From: a bacterium
GTDB taxonomy: Bacteria > Patescibacteriota > Patescibacteriia > JAACEG01 > JAGUWE01
Assembly (NCBI GenBank): GCA_043798995.1
Contig: JAZDOD010000009.1
Span: 14,015-78,014, forward strand
Length of the DNA stretch: 64,000 nucleotides
Direction: 5' to 3'
This document shows positions 3,138-52,533 of the stretch, one piece after another. Each line of letters starts with the position of its first letter. Position 1 is the stretch's first letter. A program made the position numbers and the translations under genes. The notes beneath the pieces were generated by a model that saw only the letters and a list, made by a program, of their open reading frames with translations, did not search any database and was not told the origin of the DNA.

Positions 3138-3272
3138 GCTCGGAAAGTAGTTTTTAGAAGACGTTCGCTCGCCCGGCGTGCTCGCTCACTCAGGTCCTCG
3201 GCTCGCTCTTCCGCCTTTGGCGGAAACCATGCCCGCTCGCCTGTGGATGCTTCTAAAAATTACTTTCCTCGC
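3138..3272. mobile_element. MITE-like element with ~23-bp terminal inverted repeats
   Basis: Left end gctcggaaagtagtttttagaag (3138-3160) versus right end cttctaaaaattactttcctcgc (3250-3272) gives 20/23 as inverted repeats. The core is GC-rich with repeated gctcgc motifs. It is intergenic between two minus-strand genes. Confidence 0.45.
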
Positions 3273-3282
3273 TTTTTAATTG

Positions 3283-4227
3283 TTATTCAAATAAAGCCAC
3301 TTTTTTCAAAAAAAGTTCTTTATATTCCAGGCGGCGGTCGCGAGGATGGAATTTTAAAATTTGATCATTAACTATAACCCGGCCGTTAAGGTTGGCAATA
3401 TTTTTAAGATAGGCGGGGAGTATTTTCATTTCAAAAAATTTAGCCAAAGTTTCTAAAAAATCAAAAATACCCCAGTTGAGAAAATTTAAAAAATTAAATT
3501 GCGCGCTTTTTATTTTTCTTTTTAAGTTTGGCAAAGGTGTCGATAAGTTGGGCAGTTTACTTTTTGACCACCGGCTGGCTTGGGAAAATTTTTGATATAT
3601 TTCAACTCGGGCATAAAGAGGATAGATTTGATTTAGCCAAAACTGAAAATGAATATCATCGGGGTAAGCAATTTTTTCTAAATTCAAAACCTCCTCGCTG
3701 ATAAAAAAACTTAGACAAATCTTATTTTTGGTATTATTGGGTTTGGGCCTTAAATTTAGAAATTTAATAACAGCTACGCTCAAGAGTCTGGTCAGCCAGA
3801 GACGATTTTTTTTACCAATTATAAAAAAATCAATGTCCGAATTGTCGCGACTATTGGCAAAAGCCAAAGAATTGCAAATCGCTATCATTTCAACGAAAGG
3901 AACAAATTTAAAAATTTTAGCTATTTTTAAGGCGCGGCGGTATTTTTTTTCGGCTGAGCCATAGCGCCAAAATCGCGTTTCAATGATTTTTTTCCGGCCG
4001 GAAAAAAAATAAAAGCCGTTTTTTCCATCAATCAGCTTTTTTAGCTTCTTATTATTTTCTAATTCAGCTAATACTTCGGAGGCCAAGAATTTTTTTTCCG
4101 GCGGAGTTTCAAAATAAAGATTCTGCCAGATTTCTTCAAGTGTCAAGGGATAATCAAAAATATCAAAATAAGCCACGGCAGAATAAATGGCTTTGGCAAG
4201 TTCGTTATTTTTTTGCTTTTCGTTCAT
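3283..4227 (-). CDS. hypothetical protein (weak nucleotidyltransferase-like NSDIDFFII motif)
   Basis: 314-aa ORF. NSRDNSDIDFFII resembles the hG[GS]...D.D motif of pol-beta-type nucleotidyltransferases only loosely. The stop of the rmuC-like gene overlaps its start by 4 bp. Confidence 0.45.
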   Translation of the reverse strand: MNEKQKNNELAKAIYSAVAYFDIFDYPLTLEEIWQNLYFETPPEKKFLASEVLAELENNKKLKKLIDGKNGFYFFSGRKKIIETRFWRYGSAEKKYRRALKIAKIFKFVPFVEMIAICNSLAFANSRDNSDIDFFIIGKKNRLWLTRLLSVAVIKFLNLRPKPNNTKNKICLSFFISEEVLNLEKIAYPDDIHFQFWLNQIYPLYARVEIYQKFSQASRWSKSKLPNLSTPLPNLKRKIKSAQFNFLNFLNWGIFDFLETLAKFFEMKILPAYLKNIANLNGRVIVNDQILKFHPRDRRLEYKELFLKKVALFE

Positions 4228-13746: not shown

Positions 13747-13834
13747 AAAGTATTAAATTAATTTTTAATTTTTAAATAAATTTCAATTTTTAATGTCAAA
13801 TTAATAAATATTTGCCTTGCACTAAATTTATTTG

Positions 13835-13916
13835 TGCCGATGGTGGGAGTTGAACCCACAAGCCTTGCGGCATACGGCTCTGAACCGTACGTGTTTGCCA
13901 ATTTCACCACATCGGC
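13835..13916 (-). tRNA. tRNA-Leu (anticodon CAG), class II with long variable arm
   Basis: Folded by hand from the reverse complement. Acceptor GCCGATG/CATCGGC plus discriminator A. Anticodon loop UUCAGAG. Variable stem-loop GCC-GCAA-GGC. T arm GTGGG-TTCAACT-CCCAC. Confidence 0.8.
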
Positions 13917-14018
13917 GCGGGCCAGGTCTACCAGGCCTGCCCCGTACCTTTCCGCCAGCCGGCGGATCTGGTGCGGGGTTCCACCACTCGCCCAAAATTA
14001 AAAACAAGAAAAAAGTTG
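13917..14018 (-). other. GC-rich (~60%) structured spacer between the two tRNA-Leu genes, possible small ncRNA or processing element
   Basis: Three hairpins can be drawn: UGGUG-N8-CACCA, CCGCC-GGCU-GGCGG, and a GGCC-rich stem. The GC content stands out from background, as for structured RNAs in low-GC genomes. No family assigned. Confidence 0.2.
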
Positions 14019-14103
14019 TGCCGGGGACAGGATTTGAACCTGCACAGAGTTGCCCCCACTGCCACCTCAAGGCAGCGTGTCTACCAGATTCCACCACCCC
14101 GGC
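14019..14103 (-). tRNA. tRNA-Leu (anticodon GAG), class II with long variable arm
   Basis: Acceptor GCCGGGG/CCCCGGC plus A. Anticodon stem-loop CTGCC-TTGAGGT-GGCAG. Long variable arm. T arm GCAGG-TTCAAAT-CCTGT. Confidence 0.8.
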
Positions 14104-38051: not shown

Positions 38052-39071
38052 ATGCCAAAAGACATAAAAAAAGAGAGTAAAAGTCAGGAGCCCAAAAGAG
38101 AAATTGCCGAAGCCATCAGCCAGATTAGGCAACGTTTTGGCGAGGGCTCAATTATGAGATTAGGAGAAGCCAAATCAATGAAAGTTGATGCCATTCCAAC
38201 CGGTTGCCTTTCTTTGGATATTGCTTTAGGAGTCGGTGGACTGCCGCGGGGTAGAGTGGTGGAAATTTTTGGACCCGAGGCCTCGGGTAAAACAACACTG
38301 GCCCAGCATGTCGTCGCCGAGGTGCAAAAAATGGGCGGGATAGCGGCTTTTATTGATGCTGAACATGCCTTAGATCCTGATTACGCCAAGAGAATTGGAG
38401 TCAATATTAATGATTTATTAATTTCCCAGCCGGATACCGGGGAACAAGCGCTGGATATTGTTGAGACCTTAGTGCGTTCCAATGGTGTGGATGTTATTGT
38501 AATTGATTCAGTGGCGGCGCTGACTCCCAAGGCAGAAATTGAAGGCGATATGGGAGATCACTTTATCGGACTGCAGGCTCGCCTGATGAGCCAGGCGCTT
38601 AGAAAACTAACAGCCATTATTGGTAAATCTCGCACTGTGGTCATTTTTATTAACCAGCTTAGAATGAAAATCGGTGTTTTTTTTGGCAATCCAGAGACCA
38701 CCACCGGCGGAGTTGCCTTAAAATTTTATTCCTCGGTTCGTATTGAGGTTCGCCGCAGCGCTCAAATCAAAAAAGGAGAACAAATTATTGGCAACCGGGT
38801 TCGGGCCAAAGTGGTGAAAAATAAAGTAGCTGCGCCATTTAAGAACACTGAATTTGATATTATGTATAACGAAGGCATTTCTCTTTCGGGTGATGTTTTA
38901 GATACAGCCACTAATCTTGGCGTTATAACTAAAGCCGGCAATACCTACAATTATGGTGAAATAAAACTCGGCGTTGGTCGCGAAGCAGCCAAGCAATATT
39001 TACGAGAAAACCCTAAACTCATCCAGGAAATCAAAGCCGCTACCTGGCAGGCGGTGAAGAAAGAGGAATAA
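38052..39071 (+). CDS. recA: recombinase RecA
   Basis: [11 protein letters not shown] Walker [12 protein letters not shown]1/L2 loops. Full-length match. Confidence 0.95.
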
Positions 39072-39183
39072 AAAAATAGAAATTATTTCGCATAATATAC
39101 AATATCAAGTATATTATATGCAAACACTTCACATAAAAACTACTTAGGCGACATTATCTATACAAACATTAAAAGAAGAATGT

Positions 39184-39510
39184 ATGTGGCAAATAATTGG
39201 CTGGATAATTTGGGGCTTATTAGCTTTTTTTGCTATTTCATGGGCATTTGGTTGCCGAACATATGCTAAATCGGGGCAAGGATTTCAATTGGCAACAGGT
39301 GTTCAAACTTTCTATTTTTGGATTATTGCCTTTCTTTTTTTAGTATTTGAGTGGAATAAACTTCACATACTTTGGGTAACTCCGATTGCGTTTTTCACAG
39401 CAAATTTATTGGTTCATGGAGGAATTCCTATTTTGTCACCTCTTGTATTATTTTCCACAAGAATATTTTTATCCATTATTCTTATTGGAGTTAGAAAACA
39501 TAATTCATAG
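39184..39510 (+). CDS. small membrane protein, hypothetical
   Basis: 108 aa with three or four TM helices. First gene of the accessory array. Confidence 0.4.
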   Translation: MWQIIGWIIWGLLAFFAISWAFGCRTYAKSGQGFQLATGVQTFYFWIIAFLFLVFEWNKLHILWVTPIAFFTANLLVHGGIPILSPLVLFSTRIFLSIILIGVRKHNS

Positions 39511-39534
39511 ACAACGTCACCCAACAGTTTATAT

Positions 39535-39554
39535 GGGGTGAGGCATTTGATATT
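39535..39554. repeat. left arm of the 20-bp perfect inverted repeat bracketing gene 39560..39883
   Basis: ggggtgaggcatttgatatt. Its reverse complement occurs at 39881-39900 (19/20). It ends 5 nt before the ATG. Confidence 0.6.
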
Positions 39555-39559
39555 TTTTT

Positions 39560-39883
39560 ATGAATAAGAAAATTCAAACAATTACGATTGTAAAAATTAT
39601 TGCTATTATAATGCTCTTTTGGGCGTTGGCTGATAATCCGTACGGATATTATCAAATTTTGCGTTGGGTTATATGCGGACTAACTGGATATTCGGCTTAT
39701 CTCGCCTATGAGCAAGGTAAAATTGCTTGGGCTTGGATTTTGGGAATTACGGCAATACTTTTTAATCCAATAGCACCTATTTACCTTGATCGTGAAACTT
39801 GGTCAGTATTGGATATAATCGCCGCCACAATAATTTTTACAAGTATATTTAAAATGGAAGTAGTTGCGAAAAAAGAGGAATAA
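39560..39883 (+). CDS. small membrane protein, hypothetical (IR-bracketed cassette gene)
   Basis: 107 aa with three TM helices. Precisely flanked by the 20-bp inverted repeats. Confidence 0.4.
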   Translation: MNKKIQTITIVKIIAIIMLFWALADNPYGYYQILRWVICGLTGYSAYLAYEQGKIAWAWILGITAILFNPIAPIYLDRETWSVLDIIAATIIFTSIFKMEVVAKKEE

Positions 39884-39900
39884 TATCAAATGCCTCACCC
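39881..39900. repeat. right arm of the 20-bp inverted repeat; begins at the stop codon of 39560..39883
   Basis: aatatcaaatgcctcaccc(a). Followed by the motif ctcacccaaattt, which recurs at 42111-42123 after another gene stop. Confidence 0.6.
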
Positions 39901-39982
39901 AAATTTTTGCTCCGTTTCACTTTGCAAAAACTTCAGATACACAGATACGTTTAGCTGAAATAAATTTAATTTTTATTTTTTT

Positions 39983-41239
39983 ATGTCAAATAAATTCAAT
40001 CCATTTAAGCCAAATAGTCCTGTGTTTACGGGAATGTTTGCAGGTAGAGAAAAAGAAATTAACGGTATAGCCAGATCATTATTCCAAACAAAAAATGGAA
40101 ATCCGAACCACATTTTACTTGTTGGTGAACGAGGTATCGGCAAAACATCTCTTTTGTCTTTAGCTAATAATTTTGCAAAAAATGAAATAATATGGGATGA
40201 ACAAAATTATAATTTTTTAACCATCCAAATTAATCTTTCAGAAAAAATGACTATGGCCGATTTGGCTGTATCCTTAAAAATTAAAGTCGAAAGAGAATTA
40301 GAAAAAATAAATCCAGAGATTACATTAATAAAAAAATGCTGGGATCATATTCTTAAAATCGAAGCAGGTGGAATTAAGTATAGAGGTTCCGATAATATGC
40401 AAGATGAAGAACCACAAATTTGTGAAAAATTTACGCATTCTCTAGTTGATACTGTTAAAAAATTAACTCAAGATACTGCAGCGAGCGAAGTTGGTATAAC
40501 CCAAAAAAAAGATGGGATGGTAATTTTAATAGATGAGGCCGACAGAGCAAATAAGTCTCTAAATTTAGGATCATTTTTAAAAAACTTAACGGAAGCTCTA
40601 AGTGTTGAAAATTGTAATAAAATATTATTTATACTTGCTGGACTACCCAATATACGTAAAATCCTTCTAGAAAGTCACGAATCATCATTGAGATTATTTC
40701 AAGAATATGAATTGCCTCCACTCTCAAAAAATGAGACAGATGAAGTAATAACGAGAGGCATTAAAGAAGGAAATGAAGCATCTAATTCAAAAATTACAAT
40801 AGGCCGCAAAGCTTTGGATTTAATTTATATATATTCAGAGGGTTATCCTCATTTTGTACAACAAATTGGGTATTCTTGTTTTGAGGTAAATTCTGATGAA
40901 GAAATTGACGAAGAAGATATTAAAAAAGGCTTTTTTATGAAAGGAGGCGCCTTAGACCTAATTGGTAATAGGGGTTACAAAAAGTTATATTATTCAGACA
41001 TAAACGTTGATTCGCAAAGAGAAATTCTTGATATTATGGCCGATAATTGGAATGATTGGGTATCGCGAGACAATATAATTAAAAAATTTTCAGGAAAAAA
41101 AACCGCACTTAATAATGGGTTAAGAGCATTAAAAGAAAAAAGTATTATTTTAATAAAAGAAGGTGAGAGGGGAAAATATAGATTACAATGGGCGAGTTTT
41201 GCTTTTTGGATAAAGAATCATAAAAAAATACAAAAATAA
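39983..41239 (+). CDS. AAA-type ATPase (archaeal-ATPase / ORC-Cdc6-like P-loop NTPase) with C-terminal winged-helix-like domain
   Basis: Walker A GERGIGKTSLL. Walker B MVILIDEADR. The C-terminus RDNIIKKFSGKKTALNNGLRALKEKSIILIKEGERGKYRL looks like a wHTH. The exact family is not assignable. Confidence 0.5.
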   Translation: MSNKFNPFKPNSPVFTGMFAGREKEINGIARSLFQTKNGNPNHILLVGERGIGKTSLLSLANNFAKNEIIWDEQNYNFLTIQINLSEKMTMADLAVSLKIKVERELEKINPEITLIKKCWDHILKIEAGGIKYRGSDNMQDEEPQICEKFTHSLVDTVKKLTQDTAASEVGITQKKDGMVILIDEADRANKSLNLGSFLKNLTEALSVENCNKILFILAGLPNIRKILLESHESSLRLFQEYELPPLSKNETDEVITRGIKEGNEASNSKITIGRKALDLIYIYSEGYPHFVQQIGYSCFEVNSDEEIDEEDIKKGFFMKGGALDLIGNRGYKKLYYSDINVDSQREILDIMADNWNDWVSRDNIIKKFSGKKTALNNGLRALKEKSIILIKEGERGKYRLQWASFAFWIKNHKKIQK

Positions 41240-41254
41240 AAATTAAATTAACAT

Positions 41255-41345
41255 CAGCTAACAGCGTGTATCGGGTTCGGTCTTCTCCGAAAGCCTCCGC
41301 CAAATTTGCCTCCGCTACGCTACGCAAACTTTAGATATTCCTAAA
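41255..41345. repeat. post-stop junction element, copy C of the TAACAGCG...AACGTTA family
   Basis: Starts gctaacagcgtg and ends ctaaacgttaagg. Internal direct repeat cctccgcc/cctccgct. Immediately follows the stop at 41239. Confidence 0.35.
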
Positions 41346-41385
41346 CGTTAAGGTGAAATTTAATTTTTAATTTAATAAAATTGAT

Positions 41386-41817
41386 ATGGACTCAAACAAA
41401 TTGCCTCGTAACATTATTTTAGTTAGCATCTTAATAATCGCCGTATCCATTGGTTATTATTATTTAATTTTTCTGCCTCAAAAAGAACGTAATAGAATAG
41501 AAGCCGAAAATCAAAAACGCGTTGAATCTATTAAAAATGATTGCATTGACAGAGTTTTAAAAGAAATGAAAAACGAACATCCTAAAATGGAAACTGAGGA
41601 AATCACTAGTTTTCGAATTGCTAGTGATCGAGGTTGTTTTATTGAGGCGGGTTGCATGAAAGGTGTTCAAGATAATTATTTTAAAGCTAAATTTGATGAG
41701 TGTAATAATGAATATTATAATACTTGTTTAGCAGGACTTAAAAACAAAGTAGATGAAATGATTGAGGCAGAAAAATTAAAAAGAATCAATGAATGTATAA
41801 ATCTATATTCAAATTAA
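41386..41817 (+). CDS. hypothetical membrane-anchored Cys-rich protein
   Basis: N-terminal TM anchor and a C-terminal domain with six Cys residues (CIDRV...CFIEAGC...CNNEYYNTC...CIN). Confidence 0.4.
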   Translation: MDSNKLPRNIILVSILIIAVSIGYYYLIFLPQKERNRIEAENQKRVESIKNDCIDRVLKEMKNEHPKMETEEITSFRIASDRGCFIEAGCMKGVQDNYFKAKFDECNNEYYNTCLAGLKNKVDEMIEAEKLKRINECINLYSN

Positions 41818-41820
41818 AAA

Positions 41821-41860
41821 TATAACTTCACTTAACACGGTTTATCCGATTCGCTCGCTA
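41821..41860. repeat. post-stop junction element, copy A (ATAACACGGTTTATCCGATTCGC)
   Basis: cacttaacacggtttatccgattcgctcgc, 4 nt after the stop at 41817. A near-identical copy B lies at 43600-43645. Confidence 0.45.
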
Positions 41861-41881
41861 AAAATATTAATTCGAAAATTT

Positions 41882-42076
41882 ATGGACAATAAACAATTAA
41901 CTAAGGATGATCTATTTAGGTGGCTATCAAATAAAATTGGTGGCGCGTCTATGGACGTTATTTTAGAAACTTTTTTAAAATTTAGTGATAGAGAATCATT
42001 ATTTTGTTTTGTAAAAGAGCTTGAAAATGAAGGGCTTATTTACAAATATAATGGTGAATTTTGGATAAAAAAATAA
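41882..42076 (+). CDS. small hypothetical protein (64 aa, winged-helix-like)
   Basis: MDNKQLTKDDLFRWLSNKIGGASMDVILETFLKF...GLIYKYNGEFWIKK. No family assignable. Confidence 0.35.
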   Translation: MDNKQLTKDDLFRWLSNKIGGASMDVILETFLKFSDRESLFCFVKELENEGLIYKYNGEFWIKK

Positions 42077-42195
42077 ATGCCTATTTTATATTCATAAATA
42101 TTTTTAGCTCGCTCACCCAAATTTGGTAGTAGTGAGCACTGGCGCGTAAATTATACCACTGCCAAATTTCGGCTATCCCAAGCCATTAGCCGCTA

Positions 42196-42831
42196 TTGCC
42201 TTTAAAGAGGATAAAAAATATGGGATTATTTTCACTTGATTATCAAAACATGCCAGGCCAGTGTATCTATGCCAAAGGTGGCTTGAAGTTCCGTGCCGAC
42301 GAAGATGCACTACGCCACTACTTTGCCCCAATTTTGCCTTATGTGTCTCTAAACGATCTTATCGGCGAAAGTGTTTTCTGGTCTATGCTACCATCAACAG
42401 TGGCTATCTGGACATTTCCTTTTCTTCTTCATAGTCAAGGAATCCTATTTGCTATAATCGCCACACTAGCCCTCTATTTAGTTGCGGAAATAGGTCATAT
42501 GGCTTTCTATATAAAGCCGCTCAATTACGTAGTTTTCATTTTAGGAAATCAGTTCCTCTCGTTGGTCGTTTATATTATCTGGGCAGTAATACTCATTCTC
42601 TCTGGTTCTATAGTTGGAGCTATAATTTTGGGGGTGTGGTTTTTGTTTTTTGCGCTTGGTCTTAGTCAAATAATATTTCTTTTGCCAATAATTCCCTTCC
42701 TTACAAAACTTTTTTCCTTACCACCATCTGATCAGGTGTTAAAAAACGTTGGCTGGCATTGTGCTAGAAAATTTGGAATTGACCCAACTAAATGGAAGAT
42801 GTATGACCAAAAAACAGGCAACGGCGGCTAA
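42196..42831 (+). CDS. hypothetical membrane protein
   Basis: 211 aa with about five TM helices. Confidence 0.4.
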   Translation: MPLKRIKNMGLFSLDYQNMPGQCIYAKGGLKFRADEDALRHYFAPILPYVSLNDLIGESVFWSMLPSTVAIWTFPFLLHSQGILFAIIATLALYLVAEIGHMAFYIKPLNYVVFILGNQFLSLVVYIIWAVILILSGSIVGAIILGVWFLFFALGLSQIIFLLPIIPFLTKLFSLPPSDQVLKNVGWHCARKFGIDPTKWKMYDQKTGNGG

Positions 42832-42900
42832 CAGCGGATAAAAGGGAAATTAAAGATTTCCCCAAATTGCCTTCGGCAACTTCTTTTATCCACAAAACGT
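42826..42900. repeat. post-stop junction element, copy D, imperfect ~70-bp palindrome containing a perfect DnaA box
   Basis: gctaacagcggataaaag...cttcttttatccacaaaacgtta. The arms ggataaaag and cttttatcc pair, and there is an internal hairpin gggaaat...atttccc. It overlaps the stop at 42831. Confidence 0.4.
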
Positions 42901-42924
42901 TATATGAAATAATAAAAAAATTTA

Positions 42925-43596
42925 TTGCTTATGAATGACTTTAATGATATTGTCGAGAGACATAGAAAAAGAGGCGAAGAAATTGTAGAAAAGTTTAAAC
43001 AGGACTCAGAAAGGAGGGAAGCCAAAATGGCTAAAGGCGTAGAGCGACTTGAGGATTTATCAATGCAGAATTTCGCCTCTTGGCGAGATTATCTATACAA
43101 ATACTTCAGCGTTATCTTATTACTTATCGGAGCCACAGGAGTTTTGCAATCGGAAAAGTTTAATGACCCATGGTTTAAAGCAGGTATATTCACAACTCTG
43201 GTTGGAGTCTTCATTGGCTATGTTTTTATCAATATATATTTCTATATAGAAAGAAAGTGGCTCCAAGCGCAAAATATCATTGGCTTAGAAGGAACTTACT
43301 CTTTACATGAACACCCCAAAGCAAAAACGGGCGATATCCGAGAAGCAATTATCCTCCATCAGCTAGATTATATAGAACAGATCAAGAAAAGATTAGAGGA
43401 AGCTAAAGCGAATAATGACAAAAAAATGATAAGACATTACAAAAAGGTTATTAGGATTAATAAGCGATTAAACTTTTCCATCAAATTTACTGGGGAGCAG
43501 TTTGGTATAATAGAACACATTTGGATATCAGGGACAATACTAAGCTTATTCCTAACGATCTCTGGTATAGCAATTGTTTTCTTAAACATTCGATAA
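42925..43596 (+). CDS. hypothetical membrane protein with N-terminal coiled-coil segment
   Basis: 223 aa with four TM helices. Confidence 0.4.
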   Translation: MLMNDFNDIVERHRKRGEEIVEKFKQDSERREAKMAKGVERLEDLSMQNFASWRDYLYKYFSVILLLIGATGVLQSEKFNDPWFKAGIFTTLVGVFIGYVFINIYFYIERKWLQAQNIIGLEGTYSLHEHPKAKTGDIREAIILHQLDYIEQIKKRLEEAKANNDKKMIRHYKKVIRINKRLNFSIKFTGEQFGIIEHIWISGTILSLFLTISGIAIVFLNIR

Positions 43597-43599
43597 AAT

Positions 43600-43645
43600 T
43601 TTTGATTACATCCAATAACACGGTTTATTCGATTCGCGTTTGTTA
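43600..43645. repeat. post-stop junction element, copy B (ATAACACGGTTTATTCGATTCGCG), ends in GTTAAAT
   Basis: ccaataacacggtttattcgattcgcgtttgttaaat, which is 22/23 identical to copy A over the core. Starts 4 nt after the stop at 43596. Confidence 0.45.
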
Positions 43646-43966
43646 AATAAATTATTTTTTAATAATTACAGTCCTATGAATTTAGTAAGCACTAACCTCA
43701 AAAAAATCATTTTAGTAACTAGTGTAATATTAATGGTTGGAACAGTTAGTACAAGGGCATTGTTTCTACGAGAAGGGAATATTATAATTGGTTCCCTGTT
43801 CTCAATAGGATTTGGACTTTTAATCTCTCTTGGAGTATTGATTACTATACAAAAAATATTTTTCAATAAAAATATTAAAAAATGCTCTTTTTGTTCTGAA
43901 GAAATTTTAGCTGATGCAATCAAATGTAGATATTGCGGTGAATTTTTAAATAAAAAAATAAAATGA
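43640..43966 (+). CDS. membrane protein with C-terminal zinc ribbon
   Basis: Two TM helices, then CSFCSEEILADAIKCRYCGEF. Confidence 0.4.
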   Translation: MLNKLFFNNYSPMNLVSTNLKKIILVTSVILMVGTVSTRALFLREGNIIIGSLFSIGFGLLISLGVLITIQKIFFNKNIKKCSFCSEEILADAIKCRYCGEFLNKKIK

Positions 43967-44130
43967 AAGACTATATTTTTTATCCATTACTTACAGCCAT
44001 TTTCTGGATTCTTATGTCTTTATTTGTATATAAAGACGATTCGACTCAAGAAAAAACTAAGATGGCAATTGGCGCCGGTGTTATCGGTTTGATTATGGGC
44101 ATTTTTTTCTATTTTTTTGGATTTTACTAA
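43963..44130 (+). CDS. small TM protein (55 aa), start overlaps upstream stop (ATGA)
   Basis: MKDYIFYPLLTAIFWILMSLFVYKDDSTQEKTKMAIGAGVIGLIMGIFFYFFGFY. Below the ORF-track size cutoff. Confidence 0.3.
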   Translation: MKDYIFYPLLTAIFWILMSLFVYKDDSTQEKTKMAIGAGVIGLIMGIFFYFFGFY

Positions 44131-44382
44131 TTTCATTCAAAAATAAAAATATTTAGTAAACGCTCATCCAAATGCGCTTTCGCTAAAGCTCCAGCGCTCC
44201 AGGTGTTATACAAAAAAGTTCAACCAAAAAAGACGGAAAATATAGCCGTCTTTTTAAAATGTCATCCTGATCCGCCAGTCGGCGGATTCAGGATTTCTTA
44301 ATTAATATATCAAAATGTCGAGATAAGTTCGTCCCAAAGAGATTCTGAAACAAGTTCAGAATGACAAATTAATTATTTAAAC

Positions 44383-44431
44383 TTGACAGGATATTTTACT
44401 TATGTTAGTATTGTAATACAATGTATTACAA
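44383..44431 (+). promoter_or_regulatory. promoter TTGACA-17-TAGTAT with adjacent perfect palindromic operator TTGTAATACAatgTATTACAA
   Basis: -35 at 44383-44388 and -10 at 44406-44411. A 10+10-bp perfect inverted repeat at 44411-44431 lies 17 nt before the antitoxin start. This layout is typical of RHH-antitoxin autoregulation. Confidence 0.45.
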
Positions 44432-44447
44432 TTAATCAAAAAAAAAT

Positions 44448-44663
44448 ATGCGTGAAATAATCAATATTTCCCTGCCTTCTCCGCTGGTCAAAACCGTTAA
44501 AAAAGCGGTTAAAGAAGGCGATTATATGAGTGTTAGCGAATTTTTTCGTGATTTACTGCGGGACTGGCAGAAAGGTAAATTATTAAGCGAGCTCAACGAA
44601 AGCCGCGAAGAAATTAGATCCGGCAAGGGCAAAACCTTAAAATCCTTAAAGGATTTAAGATAG
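44448..44663 (+). CDS. ribbon-helix-helix (ParD/CopG-like) antitoxin
   Basis: 71 aa. INISLPSPLVKTVKKAVKEGDYMSVSEFFRDLLRDWQ has a beta-alpha-alpha pattern. It lies 8 nt upstream of a RelE/ParE-family toxin gene. Confidence 0.6.
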   Translation: MREIINISLPSPLVKTVKKAVKEGDYMSVSEFFRDLLRDWQKGKLLSELNESREEIRSGKGKTLKSLKDLR

Positions 44664-44671
44664 TTTTCTGT

Positions 44672-44932
44672 ATGAATATTGTTTATAGCTCAAAATTTGC
44701 GCGTGAATACAGAAAATTACCTAACAATATAAAAACCATTGCCGAGCAACAAGAAAAAATATTTCGCAAAAATCCTTTTGACCAAAAACTAAAAACTCAC
44801 AAACTAAAAGGCAGGTTGAAAGGATTTTTATCTTTTTCTATTGGTTATCAGTACCGAATAATTTTTGAATTCGGAAAAGATAAAAAAACCGTCTATTTTC
44901 ATTTTGTTGGTAACCATGGTATTTATCAATAA
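44672..44932 (+). CDS. RelE/ParE-family toxin (type II TA)
   Basis: 86 aa. KTHKLKGRLKGFLSFSIGYQYRIIFEF...KKTVYFHFVGNHGIY matches the RelE/ParE/YafQ pattern (KL.G....E.RIG.YR.I..I..D..V.I..IGHR..IY). Confidence 0.7.
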   Translation: MNIVYSSKFAREYRKLPNNIKTIAEQQEKIFRKNPFDQKLKTHKLKGRLKGFLSFSIGYQYRIIFEFGKDKKTVYFHFVGNHGIYQ

Positions 44933-45227
44933 CAAATCAATAACCACATTAAGTATAACCAAAAAAGACGGATTACATTTTCCGTCTTTTTTGATGTCAC
45001 CCTGAACTTGTTTCAGGGTCTCTTTTAGGACTTCCATAGATGCTGAAATAAATTCAGCATGACAGATAAAAAATTGTTCGAGATTGCTACTCCGCCAGAG
45101 GCGGATCGCAATGACATTTTAGTTTAAGTTTTAAAATTAGTTCATTAAAAATTATTTAAAAATTGTCCACCGGAGGCGGATCCGCCTTGGGCGGAAAAAT
45201 TTAAAATTTAAAATTAAAAATTTTAAA

Positions 45228-45791
45228 TTACACTCTCTCCACATACAACCCCGTATCGGTATTAACGCGGAGAATGTCTCCTTCTTTGACAAAAAGCGGG
45301 GCGTTAACAATAAGGCCGGTTTCTAAAGTGACTTGTTTGGTAGCGCTGCCTTGGGCAGTATCCCCGCGCACGGCTGGCGGAGAAGAAATAACCTTGTAAT
45401 CAATTTTTTTTGGTAGTTCAATATTTACCGGCTGGTTATTAAAATACAAAACTATAACTTCTATGCCTTCTTTTAAAAATTTAACCCGTTCATTTAATTG
45501 TTCGGCGCTGAAATTAAACTGCTCAAAAGTTTCGTTATCCATAAAAAAATAACCTTGAGCGTCTTGATAAAGAAAATTAGCTTTGTGTTTTTCTAAGTCG
45601 GCTTCCTCAACTTTATCGCCCGGCTTGAAATTAATTTCCAAGACCTTGCCGCTTAAGAGATTTTTCAGTTTTGTCTGCATCACCGGTTTTCTTTGCTGGC
45701 AACGCATAAAATGAGCCTCTACCACTTGGTAGGGCTCATTGTTTATTTTTAAACATAATCCTTGCTTGATGTCGTTAAGCGAAGAAATCAT
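45228..45791 (-). CDS. efp: elongation factor P
   Basis: 187 aa starting MISSLNDIKQGLCLK. KOW-like N-terminus and two OB domains. The start is trimmed from the longer track ORF, whose extension translates repeat R4. Confidence 0.85.
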   Translation of the reverse strand: MISSLNDIKQGLCLKINNEPYQVVEAHFMRCQQRKPVMQTKLKNLLSGKVLEINFKPGDKVEEADLEKHKANFLYQDAQGYFFMDNETFEQFNFSAEQLNERVKFLKEGIEVIVLYFNNQPVNIELPKKIDYKVISSPPAVRGDTAQGSATKQVTLETGLIVNAPLFVKEGDILRVNTDTGLYVERV

Positions 45792-52016: not shown

Positions 52017-52132
52017 AATTTTAGGGTGGACCCCGTAAGAAGTCAGCCCAACGCTACTTTAATAGAAACTGAGAATTTAAAAATCAATAGGGCACTTTTT
52101 ATATAAAGATACATTTGTCTGACTTCTTACGG

Positions 52133-52533
52133 GGTGGAGATGAGGGGAGTTGCACCCCTGTCTAAAGATTCTCGTTTAAAAACTTCTACAAATTTAGTCC
52201 TATTTTTTTCTCGGCTTAAAATAAAAAATAAGACAAAAACTTTTAAGCCAGAGTCTTATTTGTGGTTCGATAAATTAGCAAAGACCGCTCTAATTTATCT
52301 AGTCTAATAATTATGACACCGAAACTACCTATTAGACATCAGTAGCCCCAGTGGGCCGTTTCAATTAAGCAACAGCCATTGCCAAAGAAGGAGTGGCAAT
52401 TGCTTGCGCAATCGCAGTCCTTACTTTGTTAACAAGTGTTTTTGCACTTATAATTTGTCAGCGGTTTAAAGAGCAACTAACAGCTCCATTTGCCGTTTTT
52501 AAAAAGAACCTCTGGCGAAGCTTAGGCATCCCC
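52133..52533 (-). ncRNA. ssrA: tmRNA (SsrA) candidate, directly downstream of smpB
   Basis: 5' end GGGGAUGCCUAAGCUUCGCCAGAGG resembles the tmRNA start GGGGcUGauUcuGgaUUCGaCgGG. 3' end AGGGG-UGCAACU-CCCCU-CAUCUCC-A-CC gives a T-arm plus acceptor strand pairing with the 5' GGGGAUG (one G-U). An in-frame tag-like ORF ends ...SLAMAVA-UAA. A 16-bp perfect inverted repeat (52029-52044 / 52120-52135) lies immediately 3'. Confidence 0.6.

Follow-up and report, generated by a model that had tools for sequence, protein, structure and literature searches.

Type II toxin–antitoxin (TA) systems of the RelE/YoeB/YafQ group, such as RelBE, YefM-YoeB, DinJ-YafQ, and HP0892/HP0894 of H. pylori, are operons of two genes, antitoxin before toxin, whose promoter is overlapped by a palindromic operator. 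Sedentary chromosomal integrons such as the Vibrio superintegron also typically contain TA cassettes that bring their own promoters; these cassettes lie at or near an array of small promoter-less open reading frames (ORFs) and have been proposed to help keep that array in place (PMC13108822). Here, we describe a TA module in a 64,000-nucleotide stretch of DNA from a bacterium of the Patescibacteriota (assembly GCA_043798995.1, contig JAZDOD010000009.1, positions 14,015 to 78,014; hereafter the window), located where a variable island between recA and efp borders on efp. An earlier note on this DNA had described the module as a small mobile or duplicated cassette flanked by direct repeats of ~55 bp and by extra palindromes. 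Our sequence comparisons instead favor, with a probability of roughly 60%, an ordinary and functional-looking type II TA system whose flanking repeats represent a duplicated local terminator together with conserved hairpins, rather than the ends of a mobile element.

The antitoxin and toxin ORFs (coordinates of all features are given in Table 1) are 8 nt apart, antitoxin first, behind a single shared promoter, as in the RelE/YoeB/YafQ systems, and their pairing is kept in every homologous locus. Residues 5-40 of the antitoxin match the Pfam family RHH_1 (ribbon-helix-helix, RHH) at 29.1 bits, above the cut-off of 20.5. In contrast to the YefM/Phd-type antitoxins, this protein is ParD/CopG-like: its match to the ParD-like model TIGR02606 is weak and under the cut-off, and its nearest solved structure is a ParD/CopG antidote (PDB: 5ceg).

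The toxin matches the YafQ, HigB, RelE/StbE, YoeB, and ParE models, each under its curated cut-off (YafQ_toxin, 26.9 bits vs. 30; RelE_StbE, 25.4 vs. 27.9; TIGR00053, 34.8 vs. 87; ParE_toxin, 19.4 vs. 23), and no solved structure is more than 25% identical to it, which sets it apart from the named families of this group. Homologues that are 78-80% identical carry the NCBI label RelE/StbE family, and H. pylori HP0892 is the nearest solved sequence by phmmer. An AlphaFold2 model built from 24 homologues (pLDDT 87.4) returned 33 matches at E ≤ 1e-3 in a Foldseek comparison with the PDB, the best being YoeB at a TM-score of 0.81; nearly all of these neighbors are YoeB, RelE, YafQ, or H. pylori YafQ-like proteins, that is, ribonucleases. 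The C-terminal residues H82 and Y85, together with H43 and R62, are invariant among the 24 homologues and may correspond to YafQ H50/H87/F91 and the RelE arginine, a mapping drawn from the phmmer alignment to HP0892 rather than from structural superposition. From the modeled fold, we conclude that the toxin is probably a member of the RelE superfamily, of the mRNA-interferase type, paired with an RHH antitoxin. The RelE/ParE plus RHH pair named in the earlier note is thereby upheld, by the RHH_1 match on one side and the RelE/YoeB/YafQ fold on the other.

The module does share with ParDE systems an RHH antitoxin with weak ParD matches and a toxin of the same superfamily, but it departs from them in the YafQ/YoeB-like C-terminal His...Tyr of the toxin. 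A gyrase poison of the ParE type, which was considered as an alternative toxin class, is unlikely given the ParE score under its cut-off and the ribonucleases among the structural neighbors. When the toxin and an adjacent 55-aa ORF were looked up by exact sequence, neither gave a record. At three other loci, the toxin gene is truncated (62 aa in L216 and L217, 76 aa in L221; loci from relatives carry L numbers) beside a whole 71-aa antitoxin, which suggests toxin decay in some populations.

Upstream of the antitoxin lies a sigma-70-like promoter with 10 of 12 consensus matches and a TG, its position being conserved in 13 homologous loci. The own promoter and perfect palindromic operator proposed earlier are both present (TTGACA/TAGTAT; palindrome of 10+1+10). 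The 8-N5-8 core of the operator has a single exact match in the 64 kb and one further match when two mismatches are allowed, against 0.06 expected from shuffles, and its half-sites TTGTAATA-N5-TATTACAA as well as the promoter spacing are invariant in all homologous loci. An antitoxin dimer would bind the palindrome over the -10 box and repress its own operon; decay of the labile antitoxin would then free the toxin for ribosome-dependent mRNA cleavage.

The module is conserved at ~13 homologous loci in at least seven unrelated contexts. In every context other than that of the window, DNA similarity starts at the (C)TTGACA of the -35 box and stops at the toxin stop codon; no flanks are shared past these two points, and no copy of the flanking repeat was found in the seven other contexts. 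Homologues of the toxin number 774, the best 120 of which are 72-91% identical, and those of the antitoxin 253 at E ≤ 1e-20, whereas elongation factor P (EF-P, the efp product) of the same genome has 5 non-self clusters at ≥77% identity and the remainder at ≤68%. Since toxin homologues are far more widely shared than EF-P, the spread of the TA module exceeds what would be expected of a housekeeping gene. As close relatives differ in whether they carry it and as it recurs in unrelated contexts, the TA module itself is horizontally mobile. This RelE/YafQ-like plus RHH family is very widespread in Patescibacteria, and the pair alone adds little to what is known; the interest of the locus lies rather in its surroundings.

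The two direct repeats (44216-44270 and 44951-45005) are 71% identical without gaps, with 45 of 57 positions matching when gaps are allowed, so that the ~55-bp repeats of the earlier note are real and beyond chance, its coordinates being 2-3 nt off. They share the 16-mer AACCAAAAAAGACGGA, which occurs exactly at these two sites and nowhere else in the window; with two mismatches, it has four matches against 0.24 expected, a count reached in 0 of 100 shuffles. Each repeat turns out to be composite, a feature that had gone unremarked: a terminator-like hairpin (T; the copies are called T_A and T_B) runs directly into the opening half of another hairpin unit, from which the final 12 nt (ATGTCAyCCTGA) come. 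Both copies have the form AAAAAGACGG-loop-CCGTCTTTTT. T_A has a folding energy of -11.4 kcal/mol (z -5.5) and is accompanied on either strand by an A-tract and a U-tract; for T_B, the values are -18.6 kcal/mol on the plus strand (z -6.1) and -19.2 on the minus strand, again with a U-tract on both strands. With stems of 10-13 bp, A- and T-tracts, and strong folds in both directions, they resemble the bidirectional rho-independent terminators found between convergent genes; unlike these, they form two homologous copies 735 bp apart, and the loop of one runs in the opposite direction to that of its counterpart in a close relative. The earlier note had itself considered that the repeats might be copies of a terminator common throughout the genome, yet the T stem occurs in the 64-kb window only as T_A and T_B and once more in 1.3 Mb of related loci, there at the orthologous site in L082. 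The repeats are thus best read as two copies of one lineage-specific, predicted bidirectional intrinsic terminator. In such an arrangement, T_A would insulate the TA promoter from read-through out of the upstream array, and T_B would end the TA transcript and shield it from the convergent efp operon.

The likeness of T_A and T_B could alternatively stem from convergence on a common terminator design without shared origin. The stem design AACCAAAAARGACG...CGTCYTTTTT is found in more than 120 unrelated metagenome contigs, and terminators of the kind AAAAAGACnn...nnGTCTTTTT are also present at other loci of Patescibacteria. The pattern used in the metagenome scan, AACCAAAAARGACG-N5-16-CGTCYTTTTT, is too generic to indicate relatedness, the sole relative that it matched being the L082 contig; nevertheless, so widespread a design implies that part of the T_A/T_B likeness is constrained by function. 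Against convergence, the 16-nt exact match reaches beyond the stem (AACC...GGA), an AAGT flank is common to both copies, and the copies, 735 bp apart, are the only two in 64 kb, the observed match count being reached in none of the 100 shuffles. Furthermore, the 10-nt loop of T_B in the window (44973-44982, ATTACATTTT) is the exact reverse complement of that in the T_B of L084/L085 (377-386 in L084, AAAATGTAAT), with the same stem and flanks, while T_A of the window matches the L084 copy at 44 of 56 positions, loop orientation included. This match identifies the copies as true duplicates that were more alike before the loop flipped, and the loop of T_B in the window appears to have undergone a hairpin-loop inversion. 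We regard convergence as the least probable of the explanations considered here, and very improbable in itself.

The second component of the flanks is a family of TGTCA-hairpin units, of which five (h1 to h5) lie at the TA locus, h1 and h5 being absent from the earlier description. The inverted copies of ctgaacttgtttcag reported there (CTGAAACAAGTTCAG at 44345-44359 and CTGAACTTGTTTCAG at 45002-45016) are confirmed; each lies within a hairpin of its own, h2 and h3, respectively, and the inverted likeness extends to 31-nt arms that are 87% complementary. Together with the terminators, the units form parallel blocks on either side of the module, T_A-h1(+)-h2(-) and T_B-h3(+)-h4(-). A search with the TGTCA-plus-hairpin pattern gave three matches in the window, all at the TA locus, against 0 expected. 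The family has the loop ACTTGwT and the flanks TGTCA...TC, and in distant Patescibacteria that lack the TA module at this site it is found just downstream of efp; h3, for instance, is identical over 27 nt to L006 10575-10601, a locus with a convergent hairpin pair. In an alignment of 12 hairpin sequences, six of the eight stem pairs show compensatory changes, the seeds having been chosen as perfect hairpins, and a covariance model recovered ~17 good copies in 1.32 Mb, with 11 of them located between efp and recA at nine loci. A U-rich tract follows only some of the units. Searches of the region against Rfam at gathering and permissive thresholds gave no match, and a full-text literature search for the hairpin strings returned only irrelevant papers.

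In their short conserved 5' motif, in a stem kept by compensatory changes, and in their clustered occurrence in both orientations with presence or absence differing between close relatives, the h units recall REP (repetitive extragenic palindromic) elements and BIMEs (bacterial interspersed mosaic elements). REP elements are mobilized by RAYT transposases. The h units differ, however, in carrying TGTCA rather than GTAG and in their low copy number (~1 per 80 kb sampled), concentrated in one intergenic region, so that they do not show the high-copy, dispersed pattern of REP/RAYT systems; a RAYT gene was not searched for. We interpret the h units as conserved, low-copy, indel-prone structured elements that seem to belong to the efp-recA intergenic region and not to the TA module, with a terminator, an RNA-stability element, or a protein-binding site as candidate roles. 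Their presence beside efp in distant lineages with no TA module there contradicts the proposal that the extra palindromes form part of a cassette.

Alleles in relatives separate these components from one another. In L082 (EF-P 87% identical), efp is followed by ~90 nt of AT-rich sequence, one h2-like hairpin, one full palindromic T, and an attC-like element, and the TA module is absent, which corresponds to the empty-site allele that had been envisaged, with one repeat and no TA. Its junction GTTAGGC-gAAAAAGTTCAACC-T is the same as that between the attC-like element and T_A in the window (alignment A2), and the left flank of its T, (attC R')-AAAAAGTTCAACC, is common to T_A. T_A hence appears to be orthologous to the single L082 terminator between the cassette array and efp. 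The loci L084/L085 (toxin 91% and DNA 89% identical) have the order toxin, T_B, efp and lack the h3-h5 segment (window 44993-45128), 13 nt standing in its place. Conversely, in L214 (antitoxin 93%), six small plus-strand ORFs are followed directly by the TA promoter, with T_A, h1, and h2 all missing, and in L081 (EF-P 88%), h3 and an h5-like unit adjoin efp. Given that T occurs without the TA module (L082), the TA module without T_A (L214), and the hairpins vary independently of both, the repeats are unlikely to be the termini of the TA module. The L081 contig ends exactly inside h3 (3472-3502) and that of L001 inside efp, and an EF-P search of genome contigs gave 92% identity for the closest genome, its contig likewise ending inside efp; contig breaks at h3 and efp would fit repeats or strain heterogeneity at the locus.

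These alleles bear directly on the view that terminator, hairpins, and TA genes together (735 bp) constitute a discrete mobile or site-specifically integrated cassette, with the repeats as recombination sites or target duplication. The direct repeats are indeed real and unique to this spot, a relative with one repeat and no TA does exist, and a one-T circle integrating at a resident T would yield the exact layout observed. Direct repeats around a small accessory module point to a mobile cassette only if they move together with the module, which is not the case at this locus: the seven other TA contexts lack T, with homology ending at the -35 box and the toxin stop, and L214 carries the TA genes without T_A. 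In addition, the unit contains no terminal inverted repeats, short target duplication, recombinase gene, or transposase ORF, and a six-frame regular-expression search of the window for the box II motif of tyrosine recombinases/integrases, a crude test, was negative. We therefore consider a cassette bounded by the repeats improbable. What stands of the original proposal is that the TA module is mobile and that the repeat is a true duplication; what falls, in view of the seven contexts, L214, and L084/L085, is that repeats and palindromes are the cassette ends.

If the repeats are instead a duplicated local terminator with adjoining hairpins, the history that best fits the alleles is one in which recombination placed a TA-T-efp segment of a related strain beside a resident array-T-h block, which would have duplicated T-h(+)-h(-). 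Tandem duplication of the block followed by insertion of the TA genes could also have produced the layout, and neither route involves transposition. Once in place, the two T copies could recombine with each other and so remove the TA module, whereas toxin addiction would select against this loss and help to retain the adjacent island. That the L082 allele arose through a simple deletion between T_A and T_B was considered and rejected, as the hairpin orientation does not fit.

Several points weigh against our interpretation of the locus. The toxin reaches no curated HMM (hidden Markov model) cut-off, and the generic stem design discussed above accounts for part of the repeat likeness. The sampled portion of the source genome amounts to only 64 kb, and T may be commoner elsewhere. 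In L082, the hairpin abuts T in an orientation opposite to that of h3. Either gain or loss of the TA module may be the derived state, the contigs of the relatives being short (0.6-3.5 kb) and not provably from single genomes.

Table 1. Features of the recA-efp region of the window and corresponding sites in other loci (window coordinates unless an L number is given).
Feature	Position	Strand	Description
recA	38052-39071	+	
Variable island	39072-45227	.	small plus-strand ORFs, attC-like repeats, TA pair at efp end
attC-like, full copies	41239-41365, 42829-42902	+	
attC-like, halves	39513-39547, 39885-39968, 41823-41857, 43605-43640, 44150-44211	+	
Last attC-like element, right part	44150-44211	+	ends in R'-like GTTATAC (44205-44211), directly upstream of T_A
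T_A, terminator copy 1	44216-44258	.	stem-loop 44227-44255: AAAAAGACGG-9 nt-CCGTCTTTTT
h1, composite TGTCA-hairpin	44260-44294	+	inner TCCGCC-N4-GGCGGA; -21.5 kcal/mol; weak match to model R1, 20.8 bits
h2, TGTCA-hairpin	44336-44366	-	TGTCATTCTGAACTTGTTTCAGAATCTC; 48.5 bits
Promoter, sigma-70-like	44383-44411	+	TTGACA 44383-44388, 17-nt spacer, TAGTAT 44406-44411
Operator, palindromic (predicted)	44411-44431	.	TTGTAATACA-A-TGTATTACAA; 10+1+10, overlaps -10 box
Antitoxin ORF	44448-44663	+	71 aa, RHH
Toxin ORF	44672-44932	+	86 aa, RelE/YoeB/YafQ fold
T_B, terminator copy 2	44951-44993	.	stem-loop 44960-44993, 13-bp stem
h3, TGTCA-hairpin	44995-45025	+	inverted relative to h2; compensatory stem changes
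h4, TGTCA-hairpin	45033-45064	-	42.1 bits
h5, composite TGTCA-hairpin	45083-45116	-	inner TCCGCC-N4-GGCGGA; -15.4 kcal/mol
Twin terminator-like hairpins	45166-45197	-	efp 3' end
efp	45228-45791	-	
attC-like in relatives	L082 1500-1607; L037 1539-1645, 2566-2746; L007 667-803; L092 2035-2175		
TA context	L086-L091		pyrimidine biosynthesis (pyr) genes
TA context	L092/L093		between CTP_transf and NUDIX genes
TA context	L214		following small-ORF array
TA context	L215		following PALP enzyme
TA context	L216-L221		adjoining LigT and radical-SAM genes
TA context	L222		another context

The junction at which the module lies is itself variable. Wherever recA and efp are both present among the related loci (63 loci), they are convergent and normally ~0.1-0.4 kb apart; the gap between them ranges from 25 nt to 7.2 kb, with a median of 375 nt and 30 of the 63 under 300 nt. 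At 6163 nt, the gap in the window is among the four largest. From this distribution, the recA-efp junction appears to be a recurrent insertion hot spot in the sampled Patescibacteria. The island in the window encodes a DUF6804 protein, a STAND/AAA ATPase, and several small membrane ORFs.

Between the small plus-strand ORFs of the island lie imperfect inverted repeats with TAAC...GTTA cores, an arrangement reminiscent of sedentary chromosomal integrons. Their attC-like design comprises xCTAAC, 1-2 nt, an L box of ~11 nt, a variable loop, the complementary L box, 4-5 nt, and GTTArrY; the spacers are accordingly asymmetric (1-2 and 4-5 nt), unlike those of canonical attC sites (~5/5-6). All attC-like repeats of the window are on the plus strand and inside the island (39513-44211), with none elsewhere in the window. 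Across the seven full copies from the window, L082, L037, L007, and L092, 91% of cells are paired, and 7 of 16 pairs show compensatory changes. Two classical units of ORF plus site are present in L037, and some island ORFs lie between two half-sites (one left, one right) and not between full copies. A regular-expression scan for TAAC-arm...arm-GTT structures was discarded, being noisier than its reversed-sequence control. A literature search combining attC or integron integrase with Patescibacteria returned only irrelevant papers.

Such surroundings raise the possibility that the TA module is itself a cassette of an integron-like array and that the terminators and hairpins are degenerate attC sites. 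The island repeats share one strand, and the T_A repeat (44216) follows the end of the last one (44211) at a distance of 5 nt; TA homologues directly adjoin attC-like fragments in L092 and L214; and the possession of its own promoter, typical of TA cassettes in sedentary chromosomal integrons (PMC13108822), counts in the same direction. On the other hand, an nhmmer search with the attC-like profile gave no signal in 44213-45227 even at E ≤ 50, which leaves the module without an attC-like site on its efp side, unlike integron TA cassettes. No integrase was seen by the crude box II search, a weak test, and the host is a Patescibacterium. T itself was considered as an attC site and rejected, as its palindrome is perfect and uninterrupted, without bulges or an unpaired spacer, and lacks a 3' GTT core in the window. 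We judge this explanation unlikely, if less so than the other alternatives to a duplicated terminator. An array-stabilizing role of the TA module, by analogy with that proposed for chromosomal integrons, would nonetheless be plausible.

More tentatively, the island as a whole (39.1-45.2 kb) might be an integron-like cassette platform made of small ORFs and non-canonical attC-like sites, with no adjacent integrase, to which the RHH/RelE module would be a recurrent cargo and stabilizer and the TGTCA-hairpins a separate polymorphic element marking the hot spot across the phylum. We consider this possible but doubtful. If the attC-like repeats were real recombination sites, they would point to a cassette-capture system in ultra-small, host-dependent bacteria. 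Routes of gene exchange in Patescibacteria are poorly known, and the attC-like island is in our view a lead more worth following than the TA pair.

Within the island, the 418-aa STAND/AAA_22-type ATPase and the DUF6804 membrane protein (39983-41239 and 39560-39883, respectively) could be defense-related cargo. A 64-aa ORF (41882-42076) has apparently been inserted within an attC-like element (41845-42113), with GCTCGCT at both junctions, and the insert that carries it ends in the AT-rich inverted sequences TAAAAATATTAAT and ATAAATATTTTTA.

Other hairpins recur in the sampled DNA. TCCGCC-N3-4-GGCGGA hairpins are found at 3210, 13951, 44271, 45091, and 45181 (with a variant at 45166); two of these are the inner stems of h1 and h5, and two belong to the efp 3' terminator. 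The tetranucleotide GTAG is enriched 4.3-fold at the immediate 5' side of perfect hairpins whose stems measure 7 bp or more (19 cases; L001-L093, 1.3 Mb), which resembles the signature of REP extragenic palindromes. A further hairpin with a 9-bp stem, CCCTCCTTT-nnn-AAAGGAGGG, is present in eight copies (5296, 5346, 11019, 11049, 11858, 45805, 49277, and 49326) and is usually followed by TTAGGG; one copy, shortly before the start of efp, makes the longest ORF of this gene appear larger than it is, at 262 aa. Elsewhere in the window, Rfam identifies a tmRNA at 52132-52533 (127 bits) that ARAGORN does not report; there are also two tRNA-Leu genes, at 13834-13916 and 14018-14103.

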